From Thermoleophilia bacterium (GTDB lineage Bacteria > Actinomycetota > Thermoleophilia > Gaiellales > JAICJC01): 64,000 bases of DNA. The notes beneath the pieces are model-generated. The model was not told the DNA's origin. It did not search any database and saw only the letters and a list, made by a program, of their open reading frames with translations. Location: assembly GCA_025934255.1 (NCBI GenBank), contig JAICYJ010000010.1, positions 6,379 through 70,378 on the forward strand, given 5' to 3'. This document shows, one piece after another, positions 129 through 23,298 of the stretch; the first letter of the stretch is position 1; every line of letters begins with the position of its first letter. A program made the translations under genes and the position numbers.

Positions 129-1165
129 GCCGGCGCACGCGGGTGGCGGCCGGAGCGGTCGTCTCGGCGGTGCTGCTGGTGGCGCTCCTGTGGTTTACGG
201 ACCCGCGCGAGATCTGGCGGACGCTGTCGCAGGCGGATCTGAAGTGGGTGGCGCTGGCGATGGCCGTGAACGTGGCAACGGTGCCGGTGATGGCGTGGCG
301 CTGGAGCATCCTGATCCGCGCGAAGGGCATGGTGGCACCGTTCTGGTGGCTGGTGAGGACGTACTTCGTGGCGTTGTTCCTGGGACAGTTCCTGCCGGCG
401 GCGGTGGGCGGGGACGCGGTGCGGGCGGTGGAGCTGGGGAGGCGCACCCACGACGGGCCGGAGGCGGTGGCGTCGGTGCTGATCGACCGGCTGGTGGGTG
501 TCGTGTCGCTGGTGGGGCTGGCGGTGCTGGCGTACGCCGCGGGAGGGCACTCGGCAGGGGGGCCGGAGGTGGTGGTCGCCGAGACGACGTTCGGGCTGGC
601 GGCGCTGTTGGTGCTGGGACTGCTGTTCTCGGCGCGGCTGCGTGGTCTGGCCGCGCGCGTGCTGGAGCCGCGGGTGGGCGAGAAGCGGCTGGCGACGGGG
701 CAGCGGTTCTACGAGGCGCTGCACGGGTACCGCGAACAGCGAGCGGCGCTGGCGGCGGTGTTCGGACTGGCGCTGGGGGTCCAGATCGTACGGGTGGGGA
801 CGATCTGGATGCTGGTGAAGGCGCTGGGGCTGGACGTGCCGATCACGGAGATCTACGCCACCGGGCCGGTGCTGTTCGCGGCGCTGGTGCTGCCCGTGTC
901 GCTGAACGGCATCGGGGTGCGCGAGGCGGTCTTCGTGTCGTTCCTGCACGACTCGACGACCGCGGAGCAGGCGATCGCGCTGGGAGTCGCGTTCTTCGCG
1001 GTGGGCACGGCCACGTCGCTGGTGGGGGCGCTGATCCTGGCGCTGCGGTGGGTCAGGTACGGGATCGGTGCGGTGCGGCCACGCACGCAGATCGACGACC
1101 CAGGCGTACCGCCGGCCAACGAATTGCGGGATACCGGTTACCTCAAGACGACGAAGCGCCGATAG
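125..1165 (+). CDS. Lysylphosphatidylglycerol-synthase TM-region-like (UPF0104/flippase-like) integral membrane protein
   Basis: 346-aa ORF, polytopic and hydrophobic. The N-terminus ...DPREIWRTLSQADLKWVALAMAVNVATVPVMAWRWSILIRAKG... is typical of the LPG_synthase_TM family. Translationally coupled to the upstream aminotransferase. Confidence 0.7.
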   Translation: MSRRTRVAAGAVVSAVLLVALLWFTDPREIWRTLSQADLKWVALAMAVNVATVPVMAWRWSILIRAKGMVAPFWWLVRTYFVALFLGQFLPAAVGGDAVRAVELGRRTHDGPEAVASVLIDRLVGVVSLVGLAVLAYAAGGHSAGGPEVVVAETTFGLAALLVLGLLFSARLRGLAARVLEPRVGEKRLATGQRFYEALHGYREQRAALAAVFGLALGVQIVRVGTIWMLVKALGLDVPITEIYATGPVLFAALVLPVSLNGIGVREAVFVSFLHDSTTAEQAIALGVAFFAVGTATSLVGALILALRWVRYGIGAVRPRTQIDDPGVPPANELRDTGYLKTTKRR

Positions 1166-5898: not shown

Positions 5899-6288
5899 TC
5901 AGACGCGGAGCACGAGCAGTTGCCGCTGCCGCGGGCCGTCGAACTCGCAGAAGAAGATGCGCTGCCAGCGCCCCAGCACCGGCGTACCGCCGGCCACCCC
6001 CAGCAGCTGCGAGCAACCGACCATGATCGACTTCACGTGCGAATCCGAGTTGCCTTCGAGGTGCGCGTAGCCGTCATCGCGCGGGACCAGCCGTGCCAGC
6101 ACGTCCACGACATCGGCGGCCACGTCCGGGTCGAACCCCTCGTTGATGGTCACCGCCGCCGTCGTATGCGGTACGTGCAGCAGCACCGCGCCGTCGGTCA
6201 CGCCCAGCTCGGCAACAGCCGCGGCCACCGCCTCGGTGACGTCGACGAACTGCTCTCGCCGGTCGGTTGCCAGCGCGATCCCGGGCAT
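5899..6288 (-). CDS. yjbQ: YjbQ/UPF0047 family protein (secondary thiamine-phosphate synthase-like)
   Basis: MPGIALATDRREQFVDVTEAV...LLHVPHTTAAVTINEGFDPDV...HLEGNSDSHVKS...GRWQRIFFCEFDGPR matches the family pattern. A -10-like TACGAT (complement of 6295-6300) sits 6 nt before ATG 6288. Confidence 0.8.
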   Translation of the reverse strand: MPGIALATDRREQFVDVTEAVAAAVAELGVTDGAVLLHVPHTTAAVTINEGFDPDVAADVVDVLARLVPRDDGYAHLEGNSDSHVKSIMVGCSQLLGVAGGTPVLGRWQRIFFCEFDGPRQRQLLVLRV

Positions 6289-6306
6289 CGATCGATCGTA
6301 CCGCAT

Positions 6307-6320
6307 TGCATGTTCATGCA
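6307..6320. promoter_or_regulatory. 14-bp palindrome TGCATG-TT-CATGCA in the yjbQ/argF divergent region; candidate ArgR (ARG-box-like) operator
   Basis: Perfect inverted repeat that overlaps the -35 position for the argF -10-like CATACT (6330-6335). The TGCAT core is reminiscent of actinobacterial ARG boxes; that link is from memory and was not checked. Confidence 0.35.
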
Positions 6321-6344
6321 CATCTGTGGCATACTTTTGCGTCC

Positions 6345-7277
6345 ATGGCCATGCTCGCCCCCACTCCGGCCGGCCTCGCCGGCCGCGACCTGCTCTCGGT
6401 CGACCAGCTCGGCCGTGACCGGCTGATCGAGCTGCTCGATCTCGCCGACCACCTCAAGATGCTGCAGGGGCGCGGCGTCCCGCACCGGCTGCTGCCCGGC
6501 CGCACGCTGGCCATGATCTTCCAGAAGGCGTCCACCCGCACGCGCGTCTCCTTCGAGGTCGGCATCGGCCAGCTGGGCGGCAGCGCGGTCGTGCTGTCGT
6601 CGTCCGAGATGCAGCTGGGACGCGGCGAGTCGATCGAGGACACGGGCATCGTGCTGTCGCGGTACGTCGACGCGATCATGATCCGGGCCGGGGCGCACGC
6701 GGAGGTGGAGGCGCTGGCCGCCGCCGCCTGCGTGCCCGTCATCAACGGCCTCACCGATCTCCACCACCCCTGCCAGGCGCTGGCGGACGCCCAGACGCTG
6801 CGCGAGCGGCTGGGCGACCTCGACGGCCGCACCCTGGCCTGGGTCGGCGACGGCTGCAACAACGTCTGCCACTCGCTGATCACGGCCGTCGGCATGCTCG
6901 GCATGGAGGTGCGGGTGGCCACGCCGCTCGGGTTCGAGCCCGACCCCGCGGTCGTGGCCGCCGCCGGCCCGGTGACCGTCACCGACGATCCGCTGGAGGC
7001 GGTGGCCGGCGCGGACGCGGTCGCCACCGACGTCTGGACGAGCATGGGCCAGGAGGCCGAGCGCGACCAGCGCGTCTCCAACCTGACCCCCTACCAGGTA
7101 AACCGCGAGCTGCTTGCGTCGGCGGCGCCGGGCCACGTCGTGCTGCACTGCCTGCCCGCGCACTACGGCGAGGAGATCACGCACGAGGTGCTGCACGGCC
7201 CCAGCTCGGCTGCCTGGGACGAGGCCGAGAACCGCCTCCACGCCCAGAAGGCGCTGATGGCCATGGTCATGGCCTGA
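6345..7277 (+). CDS. argF: Ornithine carbamoyltransferase
   Basis: Motifs STRTR, HPCQALAD, DVWTSMG and HCLPAH are present. The start was chosen at ATG 6345, 9 nt after CATACT. No other arg genes are nearby. Confidence 0.85.
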   Translation: MAMLAPTPAGLAGRDLLSVDQLGRDRLIELLDLADHLKMLQGRGVPHRLLPGRTLAMIFQKASTRTRVSFEVGIGQLGGSAVVLSSSEMQLGRGESIEDTGIVLSRYVDAIMIRAGAHAEVEALAAAACVPVINGLTDLHHPCQALADAQTLRERLGDLDGRTLAWVGDGCNNVCHSLITAVGMLGMEVRVATPLGFEPDPAVVAAAGPVTVTDDPLEAVAGADAVATDVWTSMGQEAERDQRVSNLTPYQVNRELLASAAPGHVVLHCLPAHYGEEITHEVLHGPSSAAWDEAENRLHAQKALMAMVMA

Positions 7278-7443
7278 GCGGGCGTCCCGGCTCACGACCC
7301 TGCATTGTGACCGATTGGATATGCAGCGCGGCGATCGGTCTGTACACTCTCGATGTTTCTGCGTGTCGATGGCGGTCGAGCCCCCCACGGTCCGTCGCTC
7401 CGAAGCCACGAACACGCCAACCATCGCTGGGAGGGAGCTTTGC

Positions 7444-8562
7444 GTGGAGCAGCCTGATGTCCGCCTAGAGCGGGTGACGAAGCAGTTCGGTGACGTGAAG
7501 GCAGTCGACGACCTGTCGCTGTCCTTCGACCGTGGCGGCTTCGTGGCCCTGCTCGGCCCCTCCGGCTGCGGCAAGACCACCACGCTACGGATGATCGGCG
7601 GCTTCGAGGAGCCGACCGCCGGCACCGTCTACCTGGGAGAGCAGGACGTCACCGGCCTGCCCCCCTACAAGCGCGAGGTGAACACCGTCTTCCAGAACTA
7701 CGCGCTGTTCCCGCACATGACCATCTTCGACAACGTCGCGTTCGGCATCCGCCAGCGCGGCGGCGGCTCGAAGCACCAGATCGCGCAGCAGGTGGGCGAG
7801 ATGCTGGAGCTGGTGCAGCTGGCCGGCTTCGAGCGGCGCAAGCCCACGCAGCTGTCCGGCGGCCAGGCGCAGCGCGTGGCGCTGGCCAGGGCGCTCATCA
7901 ACAAGCCGCGGGTGCTGCTGCTGGACGAGCCGCTGGGCGCGCTCGACCTGAAGCTCCGCAAGCAGATGCAGATCGAGCTGAAGCGGATCCAGACCGAGGT
8001 CAACATCACCTTCATCCACGTCACACACGACCAGGAAGAGGCCATGACAATGGCCGACCGGATCGCCGTCATGAACCAGGGTCAGGTCGAGCAGATCGGC
8101 CCTCCCGGCGAGCTCTACGAGCAGCCGCGCACGGCATTCGTGGCCGGGTTCCTGGGTGTCTCCAACATGGTCTGGGCGACCGTCACCGGGCCCGGCACCG
8201 TGCAGCTGCACGAGGGCACCGTCGCCCGCGTGCCCCAGGAGAGCCTGGAGGGCGGGCACAAGGAGCTGCGGATCGGCGTGCGCCCCGAGAAGATGCGGAT
8301 CGTGGCCAACGGCAGCGGAGACGGTGCCGGCGACGCCAACCGGCTCGATGGCACCGTCAAGGACGTCAGCTACATCGGCGTCAGCACCCAGTACATCATC
8401 GAGACCGCGGCCGGCGACGAGCTGACCGTGTTCGCGCAGAACGTGGGCCGGAGCGCGGAGCGTGCCGCGCCCGGCCAGAAGGTTGGTGTGCTGTGGGATC
8501 CCGAGCACACCTTCGTCATCACCGACACCCGAGAAGTACCTACCCTGGAGGAGCAGCTATGA
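7444..8562 (+). CDS. potA: Spermidine/putrescine-type ABC transporter ATPase (PotA family), operon 1
   Basis: Walker A GPSGCGKTT, signature LSGGQAQR, and the PotA-typical LLLDEPLGALDLKLRKQMQIELKRIQ, plus a C-terminal TOBE-like domain. GGGAGGGAG lies 6 nt before GTG 7444. Confidence 0.85.
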   Translation: MEQPDVRLERVTKQFGDVKAVDDLSLSFDRGGFVALLGPSGCGKTTTLRMIGGFEEPTAGTVYLGEQDVTGLPPYKREVNTVFQNYALFPHMTIFDNVAFGIRQRGGGSKHQIAQQVGEMLELVQLAGFERRKPTQLSGGQAQRVALARALINKPRVLLLDEPLGALDLKLRKQMQIELKRIQTEVNITFIHVTHDQEEAMTMADRIAVMNQGQVEQIGPPGELYEQPRTAFVAGFLGVSNMVWATVTGPGTVQLHEGTVARVPQESLEGGHKELRIGVRPEKMRIVANGSGDGAGDANRLDGTVKDVSYIGVSTQYIIETAAGDELTVFAQNVGRSAERAAPGQKVGVLWDPEHTFVITDTREVPTLEEQL

Positions 8563-9818
8563 CCAACGAGCCCAGAGGCTCCCGCGCCGACATCGAGGCC
8601 CTCGCCTTTGCCCGTGGTGCCCTCACCCGGCGCGACTTCATGCGCCGTGTCGGCCTCGCCGGAGGCTCGCTGGCCGCGGCCAACCTGCTGGCCGCCTGCG
8701 GCGGTTCGGTTGGCGGCGCCAGCACCCAGAACCCGGGCTCTTCCGCCGGGGCGGTCAAGTACCCACACACCGTCTCCCCCGACTGGAACTGGTCGAACTG
8801 GACGCTCTACATCGACGAGAAGAACCACCGCCACCCCTCGATCGACATGTTCGACGCCAAGTACAAGACCCACACCAACTACATCGAGGACATCAACGAC
8901 AACGAGGAGTTCTTCGGGAAGTTCCAGGCCACGCTGCAGGCCGGCCAGGACATCGGCCGCGACATGGTCACGCTGACCGACTGGATGGCCGGCAAGTGGG
9001 TGCAGTTCGGCTACGTCGAGCCGCTCGAGTGGGACATCCTGCCCAACGTCAAGTCGAACCTGCTGCCCACCTACCACGGCCGCTCGATCGACCCCAACGA
9101 CGAGTTCCTCGTGCCCTGGCAGTCGGGGCTGACCGGCATCGGCTACAACAGCGAGCTGACCGGCCGCGACCTGACCACCGTCAGCGACCTCTGGGATCCC
9201 AAGTTCAAGGGCAAGGTCAGCCTGCTGACCGAGATGCGCGACACGTTCGGCCTGGTGATGCTGAACCTGGGAATCGACCCGTCAAAGTGCACGACCGCCG
9301 ACGCGCAGAAGGCCCACGACGCGATCAAGCCCTACGTCGACAACGGCCAGATCCGCGCCTTCTACGGCAACGACTACTCGAACCACCTGGCCAACGGCGA
9401 CCTCACGGCCGCGATGGTGTGGTCCGGCGACATGGTGCAGCTGCTGCCCGACAACCCGCACCTCAAGTTCGTCGTGCCGGACGAGGGCTGCATGCTCTGG
9501 ACCGACAACATGATGATCCCCAAGCACGCGAAGAACCCCTACAACGCGCACCTCTGGATGAACTACTACTACCAGCCCAACATCGCGGCGCTGGTGGAGG
9601 ACTGGGTCAACTACATCTGCCCGGTCAACGGCGCGGCCGACGTGCTGAAGGCAGGCGATCCCTCGATCGGCCTGCAGGGCGATCCCAAGGTGGCGGACAA
9701 CCCGCTGATCTTCCCGCCCAAGTCGACGCTGGACAAGGCGCACGTGTTCAAGTCGCTGTCCGCCAGCGAAGAGACCCAGTTCAACACCCTGTTCGCCGAC
9801 CTGACGGGCACCGCCTAA
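8559..9818 (+). CDS. potD: PotD/PotF-family polyamine-binding periplasmic protein with a Tat/lipoprotein-type signal, operon 1
   Basis: ATGA overlap with potA. Signal TRRDFMRRVGLAGGSLAAANLLAACGG. The body is PotD/F-like (…WSNW..YID…). Confidence 0.75.
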   Translation: MTNEPRGSRADIEALAFARGALTRRDFMRRVGLAGGSLAAANLLAACGGSVGGASTQNPGSSAGAVKYPHTVSPDWNWSNWTLYIDEKNHRHPSIDMFDAKYKTHTNYIEDINDNEEFFGKFQATLQAGQDIGRDMVTLTDWMAGKWVQFGYVEPLEWDILPNVKSNLLPTYHGRSIDPNDEFLVPWQSGLTGIGYNSELTGRDLTTVSDLWDPKFKGKVSLLTEMRDTFGLVMLNLGIDPSKCTTADAQKAHDAIKPYVDNGQIRAFYGNDYSNHLANGDLTAAMVWSGDMVQLLPDNPHLKFVVPDEGCMLWTDNMMIPKHAKNPYNAHLWMNYYYQPNIAALVEDWVNYICPVNGAADVLKAGDPSIGLQGDPKVADNPLIFPPKSTLDKAHVFKSLSASEETQFNTLFADLTGTA

Positions 9819-19125: not shown

Positions 19126-20781
19126 TCAGCAGCCGGCGGGGGTGCTCGCAGCCGCGCCGTCGGCCGCGCCGGCTGCCACGGCGGAGGGATCGGTGTCGAT
19201 GTTCAGCTGCACGATGCCCGCCTGCTGGGCGACCACCTCGGTCATGCCGTTGGCCGCCGGGCGCACGCAGGCGCCGACCGGGGTCGGCTGCCGGTAGGGG
19301 CTGTAGCGCACGCGCACCATGTAGCTACCCGGGCCCGACACCGACAGCACCACGCGCTGCTGGCCGAGATACGTCAGCGTCGCCCGCCGGCCGGGCGGCG
19401 CCGTCACGATCGGCGTCGGGTGCGGGAGCGCGTAGAAGGTCCAGTGCGGCGAGCTTGAGACGACCCGCAGCCCGGACACGCCGGTGCGCAGCAGCTGCGC
19501 CTCGCGCTCGGAGCTGTAGTCGAGCGGCGCGTCGGGCAGCATCACGTAGCGGACGCCGAGCGAGCGCATCCAGGCCCGGAACATGGCCGGCGTCATCTCG
19601 TCGTTGTAGAGCGAGCCGTTCTGCGGGAAGTCCTCCTGCCGGAACCATCCGCGCGCCAGCGGCACGCGCCACTTGGCCACGTAGTAGGCCTCCCAGTGAC
19701 CCCAGGTGGAGACGGCGTCGACCCGGTAGCCGGCGATCTGGGCGCGGTGCTCCTCGACGAACTGCCTGGCCGGGCGCCAGTAGCTGGCCGCCGCCGCCGG
19801 GTTCTCGTAGGCCGAGTAGGCATCACGCATCTTCGGGGCCACCTGCAGCGCCACCGCGGCCGCGATCAGCGGGAACACCAGCAGCCGCGATCGGCGCGGG
19901 TTCAGGTTTGCCGTCAGCCACAGCATCGGCGCCCCCGCGATCGCGAACAGGCGGCTGGGATTCGAGCCGATCGGGCCCTTCAGCAGGAACGCGAACAGGT
20001 TCAGCGCCAGGTAGGCGACGAACATCGCCCGCATCGAGCGGGTGGGCGCGGCGGTGCCGGCGATCCAGAGGCCCACCAGCGAGAACACGAGCACGATCAG
20101 CGCGTCCCAGAGGTCGTACGGGTACCAGCCCTGGCTGGGGAAGGCGCGCTGCAGCAGCACGCCCACGACGAACACGGCCACCACGATGCCGAAGGCCGCG
20201 CGGTTGGAGCGAAGCGCACCCAGCGGCTGCGCCTTGCCCAGCAGCACCCCGGCCAGCACCGCGCACAGCAACGAGAAGGACAGCGGGCTGAAGGCGAGCG
20301 TCACCAGCACTGCGAGGCCGAACCAGATCCGCCGGCAACGCTGCAGCAGCGCCAAAGCCAGCAGCGACGAGGCCACTCCGGCCAGGAACGGATAGGTGCC
20401 GCCGACCATCATGATGAACGGCGCGGTGATGGCGAAGGTGATGCTGGGGCCGCGCGCGGCCGACGCCCACTCACGGCTGCAGACCAGCGCGAAGCAGCCG
20501 CCCATCAGGGCCGACGCCGGCAGCAGCACGCCCAGCTGCCCGACCTGCGCGGCGACGGCGTAGTAGAGCATGCTGTAGTTGACGAACTCGTAGCGGCCGG
20601 CGTACCAGTAGTTGTTGTAGATGTCGAAGCCGCCGTGGCTGAACAGCCAGGTCTGGAACAGGTGCGACGGTGCATCGATGCCGGGGCTCGTGAACAGCCA
20701 CAGCAGCAGCGTCACCGAGGCGGACAGGCCGGCGCAGGCAAGCGGCAGCACGTAGCGGCGCGGGAGGGCGGGCACGACCAC
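19126..20781 (-). CDS. Polytopic membrane protein, GT-C-like/PTPS-related-type putative glycosyltransferase with a C-terminal extracytoplasmic domain
   Basis: About 10 TM segments. The N-terminal loop GIDAPSHLFQTWLFSHGGFDIYNNYWYAGRYEFVNYSMLYY resembles the DxxxH/aromatic loop of membrane glycosyltransferase-like families. A -10-like TATGGT sits 6 nt before GTG 20781. Confidence 0.45.
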   Translation of the reverse strand: MVVPALPRRYVLPLACAGLSASVTLLLWLFTSPGIDAPSHLFQTWLFSHGGFDIYNNYWYAGRYEFVNYSMLYYAVAAQVGQLGVLLPASALMGGCFALVCSREWASAARGPSITFAITAPFIMMVGGTYPFLAGVASSLLALALLQRCRRIWFGLAVLVTLAFSPLSFSLLCAVLAGVLLGKAQPLGALRSNRAAFGIVVAVFVVGVLLQRAFPSQGWYPYDLWDALIVLVFSLVGLWIAGTAAPTRSMRAMFVAYLALNLFAFLLKGPIGSNPSRLFAIAGAPMLWLTANLNPRRSRLLVFPLIAAAVALQVAPKMRDAYSAYENPAAAASYWRPARQFVEEHRAQIAGYRVDAVSTWGHWEAYYVAKWRVPLARGWFRQEDFPQNGSLYNDEMTPAMFRAWMRSLGVRYVMLPDAPLDYSSEREAQLLRTGVSGLRVVSSSPHWTFYALPHPTPIVTAPPGRRATLTYLGQQRVVLSVSGPGSYMVRVRYSPYRQPTPVGACVRPAANGMTEVVAQQAGIVQLNIDTDPSAVAAGAADGAAASTPAGC

Positions 20782-20833
20782 ACCGGAACCATACCCGCCG
20801 ACCCCGCGGCGGCCTGTGGGCCGGACCCAACGA

Positions 20834-20866
20834 AGCGGATCGGGATCGGCCCGACGACCTTCTGGT
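20834..20866 (-). repeat. Partial copy (31 of 33 nt) of the 3' half of the nearby tRNA-Ala gene; candidate att-site remnant
   Basis: AGCGGATCGGGATCGgcCCGACGACCTTCTGGT (20834-20866) versus AGCGGATCGGGATCGaaCCGACGACCTTCTGGT (21464-21496). Same orientation, 630 bp apart. Confidence 0.7.
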
Positions 20867-20898
20867 GAAAGCCCGCTCCTCCGAGTCGATGATGATGG

Positions 20899-20927
20899 TT
20901 GACAGAACGCGCGGACTTTGTGAGTAT
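20899..20927 (+). promoter_or_regulatory. Candidate sigma70-type promoter for the islet gene (TTGACA-N17-GAGTAT with a TG just upstream)
   Basis: Perfect -35 TTGACA at 20899-20904 and GAGTAT at 20922-20927. AAGGAGG follows at 20946-20952, ahead of ATG 20963. Confidence 0.4.
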
Positions 20928-20962
20928 TGGCTCAATTCAGCGGCCAAGGAGGCTCCGCTCCC

Positions 20963-21448
20963 ATGCGGCGCACTATCCTCAGCGCTGGTTTCGCCATCGG
21001 AACGATGCTGGTGGTCGCGGCTCCTGCCAGCGCGACCGCGCCCGACCGAGAGGTCGACAGCTTCTCGTTCTCAGATAGCGCGGATTGCGGCAGCTTCACC
21101 GATGACTACGCCGGCACGGTGACGATCAGGACAACGACGTTCTTCGACGCGGACGGCAACCCGATCATGGTTCGTCGCAAGTTCTTGCAACGCGAGACGG
21201 ACATCAACTCCGAGACCGGCACGAGCGTTCGCGTGAAGGGCTCGTACACCGAGTCGATTGACCTGCCTACCGGTATTCGGCGAACCACAGGCCAGGTGTT
21301 CATGGGCGTCGGCGGAAAGGGCGCGAACGTCATCCACGACACCGGCCTGGTCATCTTCAATGACATCACCAGCGAGGTGATCAAGGTGGCCGGCCCGCAT
21401 ACCGTGCTCGAGGGCGGCAACGAGCCGTTCTGCCAGGCGCTGAGCTGA
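20963..21448 (+). CDS. Hypothetical secreted protein (161 aa) in a lower-GC islet
   Basis: AAGGAGG RBS. Signal peptide MRRTILSAGFAIGTMLVVAAPASA. GC is visibly lower than in the flanks. No family was recognised. Confidence 0.6.
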   Translation: MRRTILSAGFAIGTMLVVAAPASATAPDREVDSFSFSDSADCGSFTDDYAGTVTIRTTTFFDADGNPIMVRRKFLQRETDINSETGTSVRVKGSYTESIDLPTGIRRTTGQVFMGVGGKGANVIHDTGLVIFNDITSEVIKVAGPHTVLEGGNEPFCQALS

Positions 21449-21460
21449 TCGCCGCGGGTA

Positions 21461-21533
21461 TGGAGCGGATCGGGATCGAACCGACGACCTTCTGGTTGCA
21501 AACCAGATGCTCTCCCAACTGAGCTACCGCCCC
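21461..21533 (-). tRNA. tRNA-Ala (anticodon UGC), 73 nt, CCA not encoded
   Basis: Reverse complement GGGGCGGTAGCTCAGTTGGGAGAGCATCTGGTTTGCAACCAGAAGGTCGTCGGTTCGATCCCGATCCGCTCCA. It folds as a cloverleaf with anticodon loop TTTGCAA and the G3:U70 alanine identity pair. Confidence 0.95.
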
Positions 21534-21574
21534 GGGCCGCCTCAGTCTATCGTGGAGCGGCCCTCCGGCCCTCT

Positions 21575-21592
21575 TGACTGATTGATCAGTCA
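21575..21592. promoter_or_regulatory. 18-bp perfect palindrome TGACTGAT-TG-ATCAGTCA overlapping the -35 of the SBP gene promoter; candidate operator
   Basis: TTGACT (21574-21579), 18-nt spacer, TAGTGT (21598-21603), then ATG 21613 nine nt later. The palindrome spans the -35 and the spacer. Confidence 0.5.
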
Positions 21593-21612
21593 GCCAGTAG
21601 TGTGCCCGCACC

Positions 21613-23298
21613 ATGCTGCGGCCGCGAACCATGCTGATGGCGCTCGCGCTGCTGGCCGCCGTCTGCGGCGGCTGCGGCGGTAGCAGCAGCAGCTCGGGCG
21701 CGAGCGGCAGCGGCAAGAACACGATCCTGCGGATCGGCACCACCTACTACATCGATTCCCTGAACCCGCTGCTGGCCTACGAGCCGCAGGCGTCGAACGC
21801 GTTCGCGATGATCTACCCGCAGCTCGTCCAGTACGGCCCGGGCCTCAAGATCGCCCCCGACTGGGCCACCAGCTGGGAGGAGTCGAAGGACGGCCTCACC
21901 TGGACGTTCCACCTCAAGCCCGGCGGCAAGTGGAGCGACGGCGTGCCGCTGACCGCCGAGGACGCGGTGTGGTGGGTGAACACCATCTTCAAGTACCAGA
22001 ACGGCGCCACCTCCTACCTGGCCGGTGAGCTGGCCGGCCTCAAGAAGATCACGGCCCCCGACCCCAACACGCTGGTGCTGACCTACAGGAAGCCGGTGCC
22101 CTCAGCGCTCGCGAACCTCGAGCAGTTCTACTTCATGCCCAAGCACGTCTGGTCGAAGTACACCGGCAACGACGGCAAGGACATGAAGTCGTTCGACCCC
22201 GAGCAGCACCTGCCGGTGGTGTCGGGCGGGCCTTACACGATCACGCAGTTCCAGGAGAAGGGCACCACCGTCTTCAAGCCCAACCCGTACTTCTACGGGC
22301 CCAAGAGCCACGTCGCCGCCGTCGCCCTCACCTACTACACGAACGCCACGTCGATGATCGCGGACCTCGAGCAGAACCAGCTCGACTTCATCGACGCCAC
22401 GCCCTACACGGCCGCCAACTCGATGAAGGGCAAGAGCAACATCACCGTCTCGATCGCACCCGGCAGCGAGGTCACCAACCTCGGCATCAACTCGAACCCG
22501 GTCAAGCCCAAGAACCGCGAGCTGCTCGACCCCCGCGTGAAGGAAGCGCTCGAGTACGCGATCCCGCGCCAGGAGCTGGTGGACGTCGTCTACGGCGGCC
22601 ACGCCCAGCCCTGGGCCAACATCATGTCCGCCTGGTCGGGGCCGTCCGGCTGGTTGAACCCGGACGTGAAGCCGCTGCCCTACGACATCGCCAAGGCCAA
22701 CCAGATCCTCGATCAGCTCGGCTACACGCGCGGCTCGAACGGCATCCGGGTGGCGCCCGCCACCACCGGCCAGTACGCCCAGCCGGCGCATCCGATGAGC
22801 TACAGCGTGATCGTCCCCAACGACCTCGACTTCAACGGCGACCGGCAGTTCTCGGTGCTGGCGGCCGCCTACGCCAAGGTCGGCGTGCAGCTGCACGAGA
22901 TCTCCGGCGGCGACGTGTCGCAGGCCTACGACCTGATCACCGCTCCCAACTACACCTACAAGAACGCCGACATGTTCACCTGGTACTGGCACCCCTACAT
23001 CGACCCCAACTACAACCTGTCGGTGGTGACGCGGGCGCAGTGGGGGAACAGCAGCGACACCGGCTTTGACGACCCCACGTACGACGCCATGTGGCGCAAG
23101 CAGGCGGGGCTGGTCAGCTTCAAGCAGCGGCAGCAGCTGGTCTGGCAGATGGAGGCGTACCTCGCCCAGAAGCGGCCCTACATCCAGCTCGTGGACACCG
23201 ACGTGATCACGGCCCACTCAAACTCCTGGACCGGGTTCGATCCGCAGCTGTGGGGCTACTGCAAGTGCTTCTACACGAGCCCGCACCCGACCGGATGA
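21613..23298 (+). CDS. ABC transporter substrate-binding protein, family 5 (peptide/nickel/opine type); no cognate permease or ATPase genes adjacent
   Basis: 561 aa with an N-terminal signal (MLMALALLAAVCGGCGG). Typical family-5 features are …LRIGTT.YIDSLNPLLAY…, KW(S)DG.PLTA.DV. Confidence 0.75.
   Translation: MLRPRTMLMALALLAAVCGGCGGSSSSSGASGSGKNTILRIGTTYYIDSLNPLLAYEPQASNAFAMIYPQLVQYGPGLKIAPDWATSWEESKDGLTWTFHLKPGGKWSDGVPLTAEDAVWWVNTIFKYQNGATSYLAGELAGLKKITAPDPNTLVLTYRKPVPSALANLEQFYFMPKHVWSKYTGNDGKDMKSFDPEQHLPVVSGGPYTITQFQEKGTTVFKPNPYFYGPKSHVAAVALTYYTNATSMIADLEQNQLDFIDATPYTAANSMKGKSNITVSIAPGSEVTNLGINSNPVKPKNRELLDPRVKEALEYAIPRQELVDVVYGGHAQPWANIMSAWSGPSGWLNPDVKPLPYDIAKANQILDQLGYTRGSNGIRVAPATTGQYAQPAHPMSYSVIVPNDLDFNGDRQFSVLAAAYAKVGVQLHEISGGDVSQAYDLITAPNYTYKNADMFTWYWHPYIDPNYNLSVVTRAQWGNSSDTGFDDPTYDAMWRKQAGLVSFKQRQQLVWQMEAYLAQKRPYIQLVDTDVITAHSNSWTGFDPQLWGYCKCFYTSPHPTG

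Follow-up and report, generated by a model that had tools for sequence, protein, structure and literature searches.

How did a single small gene come to lie between an intact tRNA gene and a displaced piece of that same gene, with no integrase beside it? The question is raised by a 630-bp islet in a 64,000-nucleotide stretch of the genome of a Thermoleophilia bacterium of the order Gaiellales (GenBank assembly GCA_025934255.1, contig JAICYJ010000010.1, positions 6,379 to 70,378), hereafter called the window. The islet carries one gene, here named sec161, for a predicted secreted protein and is bounded by tRNA-Ala(TGC) and a 33-nt copy of part of its 3' half. The initial annotation, made from the letters alone, had read this arrangement either as a decayed remnant of an integrative element or as a very small cassette moved by an integrase acting in trans. 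Comparison with related loci supports the first of these proposals, because integrases are found at the same tRNA gene in relatives, the content of the site is variable, and the repeat stands at the boundary between core and variable DNA. We therefore consider it likely that the islet is an immobile, decayed remnant of mobile DNA at a tRNA-Ala integration hotspot.

The tRNA-Ala gene and its displaced 3' end

ARAGORN and Rfam alike called a single tRNA gene in the window, tRNA-Ala(TGC) on the minus strand (Table 1), and a repeat search of the window bore out the annotated direct repeat, in which 31 of 33 nucleotides of the displaced copy are identical to a block within the tRNA gene. Counting back from the discriminator base A73 at 21461 places this block at tRNA positions 38-70, as had been proposed, and the copy, which starts at position 38 in the anticodon loop, indeed lies on the 3' side of the tRNA gene. 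With up to three mismatches allowed, the 33-nt block has two matches in the 64-kb window and no third copy, and none of 100 dinucleotide-preserving shuffles gave such a match. T-loop positions 54 and 55 account for the two mismatches of the copy, and divergence is also seen at positions 71-73; therefore, the copy is not under tRNA-like constraint. No similarity to the 5' half of the tRNA was detected 5' of the copy (P = 0.33-0.77 versus shuffles), and the copy is therefore a 3' fragment; its reading as a whole pseudo-tRNA was rejected on these grounds. In the same region, a perfect 10-nt inverted repeat (20789-20798 and 21454-21463) has one arm, CCATACCCGC, upstream of the membrane-protein gene next to the fragment and the other, GCGGGTATGG, at the tRNA 3' end and its flank; a repeat of this length is expected by chance in a GC-rich region as large as this one.

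Relatives of the locus were found by a search with the 551-aa membrane protein encoded beside the fragment, which returned 15 genome loci and 21 metagenome loci (designated by L numbers below); the titled genome records among them are metagenome-assembled genomes labeled Gaiellales, Actinomycetes, or Actinomycetota. Because the flanking proteins are 94-99% identical in ∼25 of the loci (synonymous divergence of ∼0.08-0.19), these provide a good panel for comparing occupied with empty sites. The tRNA-Ala sequence itself is 100% identical in all relatives that possess the tRNA. We surveyed the interval between tRNA-Ala and the membrane-protein gene of each relative with a sensitive local-alignment scan and found a positionally equivalent fragment in nine of them (L001, L010, L013, L023, L029, L031, L032, L039, and L040); all were in direct orientation, and no tRNA fragment on the opposite strand was detected in these intervals. 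The fragment ends 48-52 nt before the start of the membrane-protein gene in L013, L023, L029, L031, L032, and L040, as it does in the window (∼50 nt). The fragment of L001, a nearly identical 4.7-kb contig from Joint Genome Institute (JGI) metagenome 3300064952, is the same as that of the window, the fragment of L039 is the same as that of L029, and the fragment of L010 is cut at position 59 by a deletion, 40 nt before the membrane-protein start. Overall, the 5' boundaries of the fragments differ by lineage (tRNA positions 27, 38, 50, 52, 55, and 57), and the patch is degenerate in L008, L024, L028, and L038.

Identity among the relatives is ∼80% in the 40 nt nearest to the membrane-protein gene and falls to ∼60% beyond about −46, so the 3' end of the fragment coincides with the edge of the conserved chromosome. 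A fragment at this edge between core and variable DNA would be expected if tRNA-Ala had once stood there and had been split by insertions, and the membrane-protein gene marks the chromosomal side of the old tRNA end.

Variable contents, integrases, and tandem accretion in relatives

Between flanks that are 94-99% identical, the tRNA-Ala site holds at least eight different contents among the relatives, and the gene and the tRNA copy are not conserved throughout the panel; it was their conservation at identical positions that the initial annotation had named as evidence against a mobile origin. sec161 is found in the interval of the window, L001, L008, L024-L026, L038, and L041 and is accompanied by a small membrane open reading frame (ORF) and a family-2 glycosyltransferase gene in L023. 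A different small secreted-protein gene, secB, occupies the interval alone in L029 and L039 and together with sec161 in L028; a third, secC, is present in L040, and a fragment of secC fills the 271-nt interval of L013. Further contents are an ORF in L032 that was called by eye as putatively alpha/beta-hydrolase-like, 2 kb of other DNA in L033, 7.4 kb with genes for a TetR regulator, an oxidoreductase, a short-chain dehydrogenase (SDR), and a DUF4386 protein in L027 and L030, more than 5.7 kb with sulfatase and glycosyltransferase genes behind a 42-51-nt fragment in L011, and ∼5 kb starting with an intact tyrosine integrase in L009. In L023, a long-read assembly, many apparent frameshifts are seen in the glycosyltransferase and sec161 (6100-8330), which are probably indel errors of the assembly and not signs of genuine pseudogenes.

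The integrase of L009 lies 355 nt from tRNA-Ala, matches Pfam Phage_integrase (3e-11) and a PHROG integrase family (1e-46), and has Arg, His-x-x-Arg, and Tyr motifs visible in its sequence. At the more distant locus L014, where the membrane protein is 73% identical, tRNA-Ala is followed by a small secreted-protein gene, a C-terminal integrase fragment (83% identical to the L009 integrase over 52 aa), and a perfect 19-nt repeat of tRNA positions 55-73. A conserved element end of ∼110 nt with the motif TGCGYACA..TTGCGYACA lies directly 3' of tRNA-Ala or of the fragment in L009, L011, and L014, and the same end recurs 3' of tRNA-Arg(TCT) in L006, beside another integrase fragment. This end probably carries integrase arm sites or an operator of one family of Gaiellales integrative elements; it is absent from the window and from L008. 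Consistent with the initial annotation, sec161 is the only gene in the interval of the window and no integrase was found there, and a tblastn search of the whole 64-kb window with the integrase of a relative gave a best E value of 6.

L028 carries a tandem array in the order tRNA, secB, fragment, sec161, degenerate fragment, and membrane-protein gene. Its secB unit measures ∼0.6 kb, and the fragment of this unit covers tRNA positions ∼36-73 with an 11-nt internal deletion. As this inner fragment continues seamlessly into the junction between tRNA flank and sec161 3' end that is seen in the window, secB entered by insertion into the tRNA gene when sec161 was already in place on the chromosome. 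This secB unit recurs in L029 together with its fragment, including the 11-nt deletion; L029 lacks sec161 and has a perfect 24-nt fragment next to the unit. Neither a circular nor an attP form turned up, and none of the relatives showed conjugation or mobilization genes.

The sec161 gene and its family

sec161 is the one credible gene between the repeats. Its start codon (ATG) is at 20963, its stop codon (21446-21448) lies 12 nt from the tRNA 3' end, and, as the initial annotation had stated, a ribosome-binding site (AAGGAGG, 20946-20952) precedes a single 161-aa gene whose product has a secretion-type, signal-peptide-like N-terminus. Between this Shine-Dalgarno sequence and the ATG, the window has a 5-nt duplication (GCTCC GCTCC, 20953-20962) that is absent from L001 and L008 and extends the spacing from 5 to 10 nt. 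The upstream promoter had been described as near-consensus, which overstates the case: the −10 element (GAGTAT, 20922-20927) agrees with TATAAT at three of six positions, and a scan for consensus promoters did not call the site. The −35 element (TTGACA, 20899-20904) and the 17-nt spacer stand, and the promoter-like motif is kept together with sec161 in all genomic contexts examined. A lower GC content than that of the flanks, also claimed, proved real but modest. The islet (20867-21460) has 62.5% GC compared with a mean of 70.1% for the window, in which 0.7% of 594-nt segments are as low; the GC content at third codon positions (GC3) of sec161 is 0.845 compared with a median of 0.93 for 54 ORFs of the window, among which its total GC content is the lowest. 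The neighboring transporter genes have a similarly low total GC content but a GC3 of ∼0.97, and GC3 is therefore the meaningful, if modest, deviation of sec161.

The product could not be assigned to a known family, in line with the initial annotation, which had called its family unknown. Searches of Pfam and PHROGs gave no matches, and Foldseek comparison of its AlphaFold model (predicted local distance difference test, pLDDT, 83.6; seven long beta-strands and short C-terminal helices) with the PDB gave nothing significant (best E = 0.07 and best template modeling score, TM, 0.43). The predicted signal peptide ends in ASA|T, and cysteines C42 and C157 are invariant. A profile search retrieved at least 207 clusters of proteins of ∼160-170 aa, all unnamed or hypothetical and with no Pfam domain except in one 344-aa fusion; taken together with the model, they suggest a family of secreted, disulfide-containing, all-beta proteins of ∼165 aa. 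SecB (165 aa) is a distant member (hhalign probability 94.9%, E = 4e-8, 149 columns). Kinship of SecC of L040 and of the L014 protein with sec161 was considered and could not be demonstrated, the matches being confined to an HDTG motif or the signal peptide.

Pairwise ratios of nonsynonymous to synonymous substitution (dN/dS) are 0.2-0.5 for sec161 and 0.05-0.26 for the flanking genes, which suggests relaxed purifying selection on sec161; positive selection is not supported by these values. The synonymous divergence (dS) of sec161 is out of step with that of the flanks, being 0.026 between the window and L008 (∼0.12 for the flanks) and 0.29 between the window and L024 (0.11-0.17 for the flanks), and this points to allele exchange between lineages.

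sec161 homologues also occur in unrelated contexts, with 82-84% protein identity in L002-L006 and 67% in L007. The DNA shared with L002-L006 extends from the −35 region to 5 nt beyond the stop codon and does not reach the att repeats, and around the homologues of L003, L006, and L007 only 9-11-nt chance matches to local tRNAs were seen in place of att repeats. A family gene lies within 2.6 kb of a tRNA gene (Arg-TCG, Arg-TCT, Leu, and Val) in four of seven contexts outside the tRNA-Ala locus, which is far above chance at an assumed density of ∼1 tRNA per 80 kb, although the sample is small and the null rough.

Several further features were observed around family members. In L007, direct repeats of ∼165 nt (7347-7508 and 8806-8971; 94% identical), which are not tRNA-derived, flank Big_13-like and EcsC-like genes just 3' of tRNA-Leu(CAA), with the sec161 homologue 0.9 kb further on. 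In both L050 (278-5504) and L051 (2916-5498), a distant family member follows an ORF of 70-90 aa. L051 has an extracytoplasmic function (ECF) sigma factor gene within 0.5 kb of the family member, beside a DUF6923 gene, and tRNA-Val ∼580 nt away, and L050 has a sigma-70 region-2 gene ∼2.7 kb from the family member, beside a PD40/Tricorn beta-propeller gene; the island of L009 also carries a pair of ECF sigma and PD40 genes.

The coordinates of the main features are collected in Table 1. Both sides of tRNA-Ala are structurally variable: in L009 (1-850) and L013 (5185-5585), the tRNA 5' side, which corresponds to 21613 to ∼24000 of the window, is without the solute-binding-protein gene, and a 388-aa ORF is reduced to a C-terminal fragment. 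In L008, a 31-nt deletion removes most of the spacer between the fragment and the sec161 module.

Table 1. Features of the islet and its flanks in the window and of comparable features in relatives
Locus	Feature	Coordinates	Strand	Basis or comment
Window	Core flanking gene, 551-aa membrane protein, no Pfam match	19126..20781	-	Syntenic in all relatives
Window	Displaced tRNA-Ala 3' fragment, attR-like relic	20834..20866	-	31/33 match
Window	Spacer from fragment to gene module, specific to window/L001 lineage	20867..20895	.	Comparison with relatives
Window	Promoter-plus-gene module, 85-87% identical to L002-L006 copies	20896..21453	+	blastn boundaries
Window	Promoter-like site TTGACA-N17-GAGTAT, TGT before it	20899..20927	+	Conserved with gene; consensus scan negative
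Window	sec161, 161-aa predicted secreted protein, uncharacterized family	20963..21448	+	
Window	Intact tRNA-Ala(TGC), G3:U70, no encoded CCA	21461..21533	-	ARAGORN; Rfam RF00005, 69.9 bits
Window	Identity block within tRNA (positions 38-70), recurring 630 nt away	21464..21496	-	Window repeat search, tRNA numbering
Window	Core flanking gene on tRNA 5' side, ABC-type solute-binding protein (SBP_bac_5)	21613..23298	+	
L028	Tandem array	6187-7518		
L028	tRNA	6187-6259		
L028	secB	6262-6855		
L028	Fragment	~6866-6900		
L028	sec161	6907-7386		
L009	Conserved element end	932-1100		
L011	Conserved element end	302-460		
L014	Conserved element end	445-560		
L006	Conserved element end	6733-6850		

Origin of the islet and its meaning

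We posit that, in an ancestor, tRNA-Ala immediately preceded the membrane-protein gene, at the spot that the fragment would now mark. An element with a tyrosine integrase would have inserted into tRNA-Ala at the anticodon-loop sublocation and supplied its own 3' part of the tRNA, regenerating the gene and pushing away the original 3' end, which is now the 33-nt repeat; tRNA-Ala would thus be the integration target (attB) and, at present, the regenerated attL side. The site has since been reused repeatedly in this Gaiellales lineage. Deletions may then have stripped the integrase and the element end from the window copy, leaving one self-promoted small secreted-protein gene that is kept as useful or at least tolerated. 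On this account, a tyrosine integrase presumably made the particular duplication seen in the window, sec161 would have arrived as cargo of the element, and the islet would now be fixed accessory DNA that can no longer move.

Such a history has parallels in known systems. In the tRNA islands catalogued by Islander, the tRNA gene is regenerated and a 3' fragment displaced (Williams 2002; PMC4383910), and att sites centered on the anticodon make up about half of the mapped tRNA islands, with T-stem sites forming a distinct class (PMC4383910). Like the islet, these islands run from an intact tRNA to a displaced 3' fragment in the same orientation, whose boundary falls at a known crossover sublocation (here position 38, anticodon-centered), and they have variable, compositionally deviant content that is polymorphic among close relatives, and they share tyrosine integrases and tandem arrays with the related loci of the islet. 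In contrast, Islander islands hold an integrase, whereas the islet is a 630-bp, single-gene interval with an eroded fragment; lacking an integrase between its repeats, it would not pass the filter of Islander itself. A second parallel is provided by cis-mobilizable elements (CIMEs), which have lost their integration and transfer genes, have kept attL and attR, and are moved together with an incoming element, in a pattern of decay and accretion at streptococcal tRNA genes (PMC5704250). The islet resembles them as an integrase-less remnant between att-derived repeats, and L028 shows an accreted second unit at the same tRNA. Its att sites are not demonstrably intact: the core repeat is present with two substitutions and a diverged end, and the element end known from relatives is absent. 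The islet also differs in that its relatives lack visible conjugation or mobilization genes, in its host (Actinomycetota, Gaiellales), and in its 0.6-kb scale. Integron cassettes are likewise small single-gene units arrayed at one site, and exchange by a tyrosine recombinase may be common to both. However, cassettes are usually promoterless, whereas the islet has its own promoter-like site, and its recombination site is tRNA-derived, with no attC-like structure (no attC-like imperfect palindrome was seen in a repeat scan of 20700-21650) and no IntI/attI platform; the array at tRNA-Ala comprises at most two units.

Several observations weigh against a decayed integrative element. The comparison of occupied with empty sites that the initial annotation had proposed brought out variable interval contents but no true empty site, in which tRNA-Ala would be directly followed by the membrane-protein gene; the smallest interval among the relatives is the 271 nt of L013. 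No relative has an element with both an integrase and sec161 between two repeats, and it is therefore only by inference that sec161 becomes its cargo. An exact search of IMG/VR viral contigs with the 35-nt tRNA 3' half gave no matches, and no relatives of the L009 integrase or the sec161 family were found in these contigs, which therefore lend no support to a prophage origin. The varied 5' boundaries of the fragments need several events or trimming. The closest relative, L008, has the same gene with a far more degenerate fragment than the window, so the window copy may have been refreshed by gene conversion or a later event. Moreover, the sec161 homologue of L006 lies on the 5' side of its tRNA, away from the side of the integrase fragment.

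These points leave room for other explanations, of which the strongest, although we consider it unlikely, is that the fragment is the relic of an old integration and that sec161 was placed there later by homologous recombination (allelic replacement) or illegitimate recombination, for example with a donor lineage through the tRNA/solute-binding-protein and membrane-gene flanks. In keeping with this, the fragment keeps its position throughout the clade although the DNA that separates it from the tRNA is not the same, sec161 dS is discordant with that of the flanks in both directions, the limits of the shared module lie within the promoter and 5 nt after the stop codon in every context rather than at the att repeats, and an identical secB unit with its 11-nt-deleted fragment is present both in L028, which has sec161, and in L029, which does not. 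Later placement would leave unexplained the frequent proximity of family members to tRNA genes and the secB of L028 with its own displaced fragment; that unit, at least, entered by tRNA insertion. A copy made without site-specific recombination, as a decayed tandem tRNA duplicate or through slippage or segmental duplication, is very improbable. Tandem tRNA duplicates and tRNA pseudogenes do exist in bacteria, and the fragment is eroded as such a duplicate might be, but no 5'-half similarity lies beside the copy, relatives have integrases and a conserved element end at this tRNA, and unrelated interval DNA varies by lineage. In three lineages, moreover, the copy begins between positions 50 and 55, within the T arm or next to it; the Islander database separates T-stem from anticodon-centered att sites (PMC4383910). 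We regard as scarcely credible a regulatory role of the copy, in which a conserved RNA or DNA structure, such as a T-arm-like leader hairpin, would serve the membrane-protein gene. Its fixed distance of ∼50 nt from the gene start on the same strand in many relatives would suit such a role, but it is lost or scrambled in L008, L024, L028, L038, L009, and L027 despite an intact membrane-protein gene, its boundaries vary among lineages, and an Rfam scan detected only the tRNA and no known RNA family at the copy, so that a regulatory origin, which the initial annotation had allowed for, is disfavored.

It is also improbable that the islet is still mobile, as a minimal CIME-like or integron-like cassette whose repeats are recombined by a tyrosine integrase in trans, which was the second proposal of the initial annotation. 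At least two single-gene units of ∼0.6 kb with related cargo (sec161 and secB) exist, each delimited on one side by the 3' end of the tRNA and on the other by a fragment with its start near position 36-38, accretion has occurred in L028, relatives hold integrases of matching specificity, and CIMEs that keep attL and attR can move with an incoming element (PMC5704250). However, the fragment of the window is substituted at two T-loop positions and has diverged at its 3' end, the ∼110-nt element end, likely the arm-binding site of the integrase, is missing, with the sec161 stop only 12 nt from the tRNA, and copies elsewhere are without att repeats, their homology stopping short of them. The negative searches for an integrase in the window, for a circular or attP form, and for viral-contig matches also speak against mobility. 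By the same token, we give little credence to the broader idea that tRNA-Ala is a platform for cassette exchange where, in this Gaiellales lineage, self-promoted single genes of one secreted-protein family (sec161 and secB, ∼0.6 kb each) are inserted, stacked, and swapped at the anticodon-loop att site by tyrosine integrases in trans; if so, a tRNA gene would here serve as the base of an integron-like system.

As a probable decayed remnant of integrative DNA, the islet leaves the current understanding of tRNA-targeting elements unchanged: islands linked to tRNA genes are well known, as are displaced fragments, tandem arrays, and remnants that lack an integrase, and the islet adds an example from a little-studied order. 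Standard island finders would overlook it, since they demand an integrase. The displaced fragment is a base-precise marker of the ancestral tRNA end that helps to reconstruct the accretion and decay of islands, and the comparison shows tRNA-Ala to be a very active integration hotspot in Gaiellales, a soil order that is abundant but uncultured and whose mobile elements are barely described. What makes the locus modestly interesting is the extreme turnover at one tRNA gene together with a secreted family that is repeatedly retained there, and the more useful lead is the cargo, an uncharacterized family of secreted proteins with fast turnover at this site and often found near tRNA genes.

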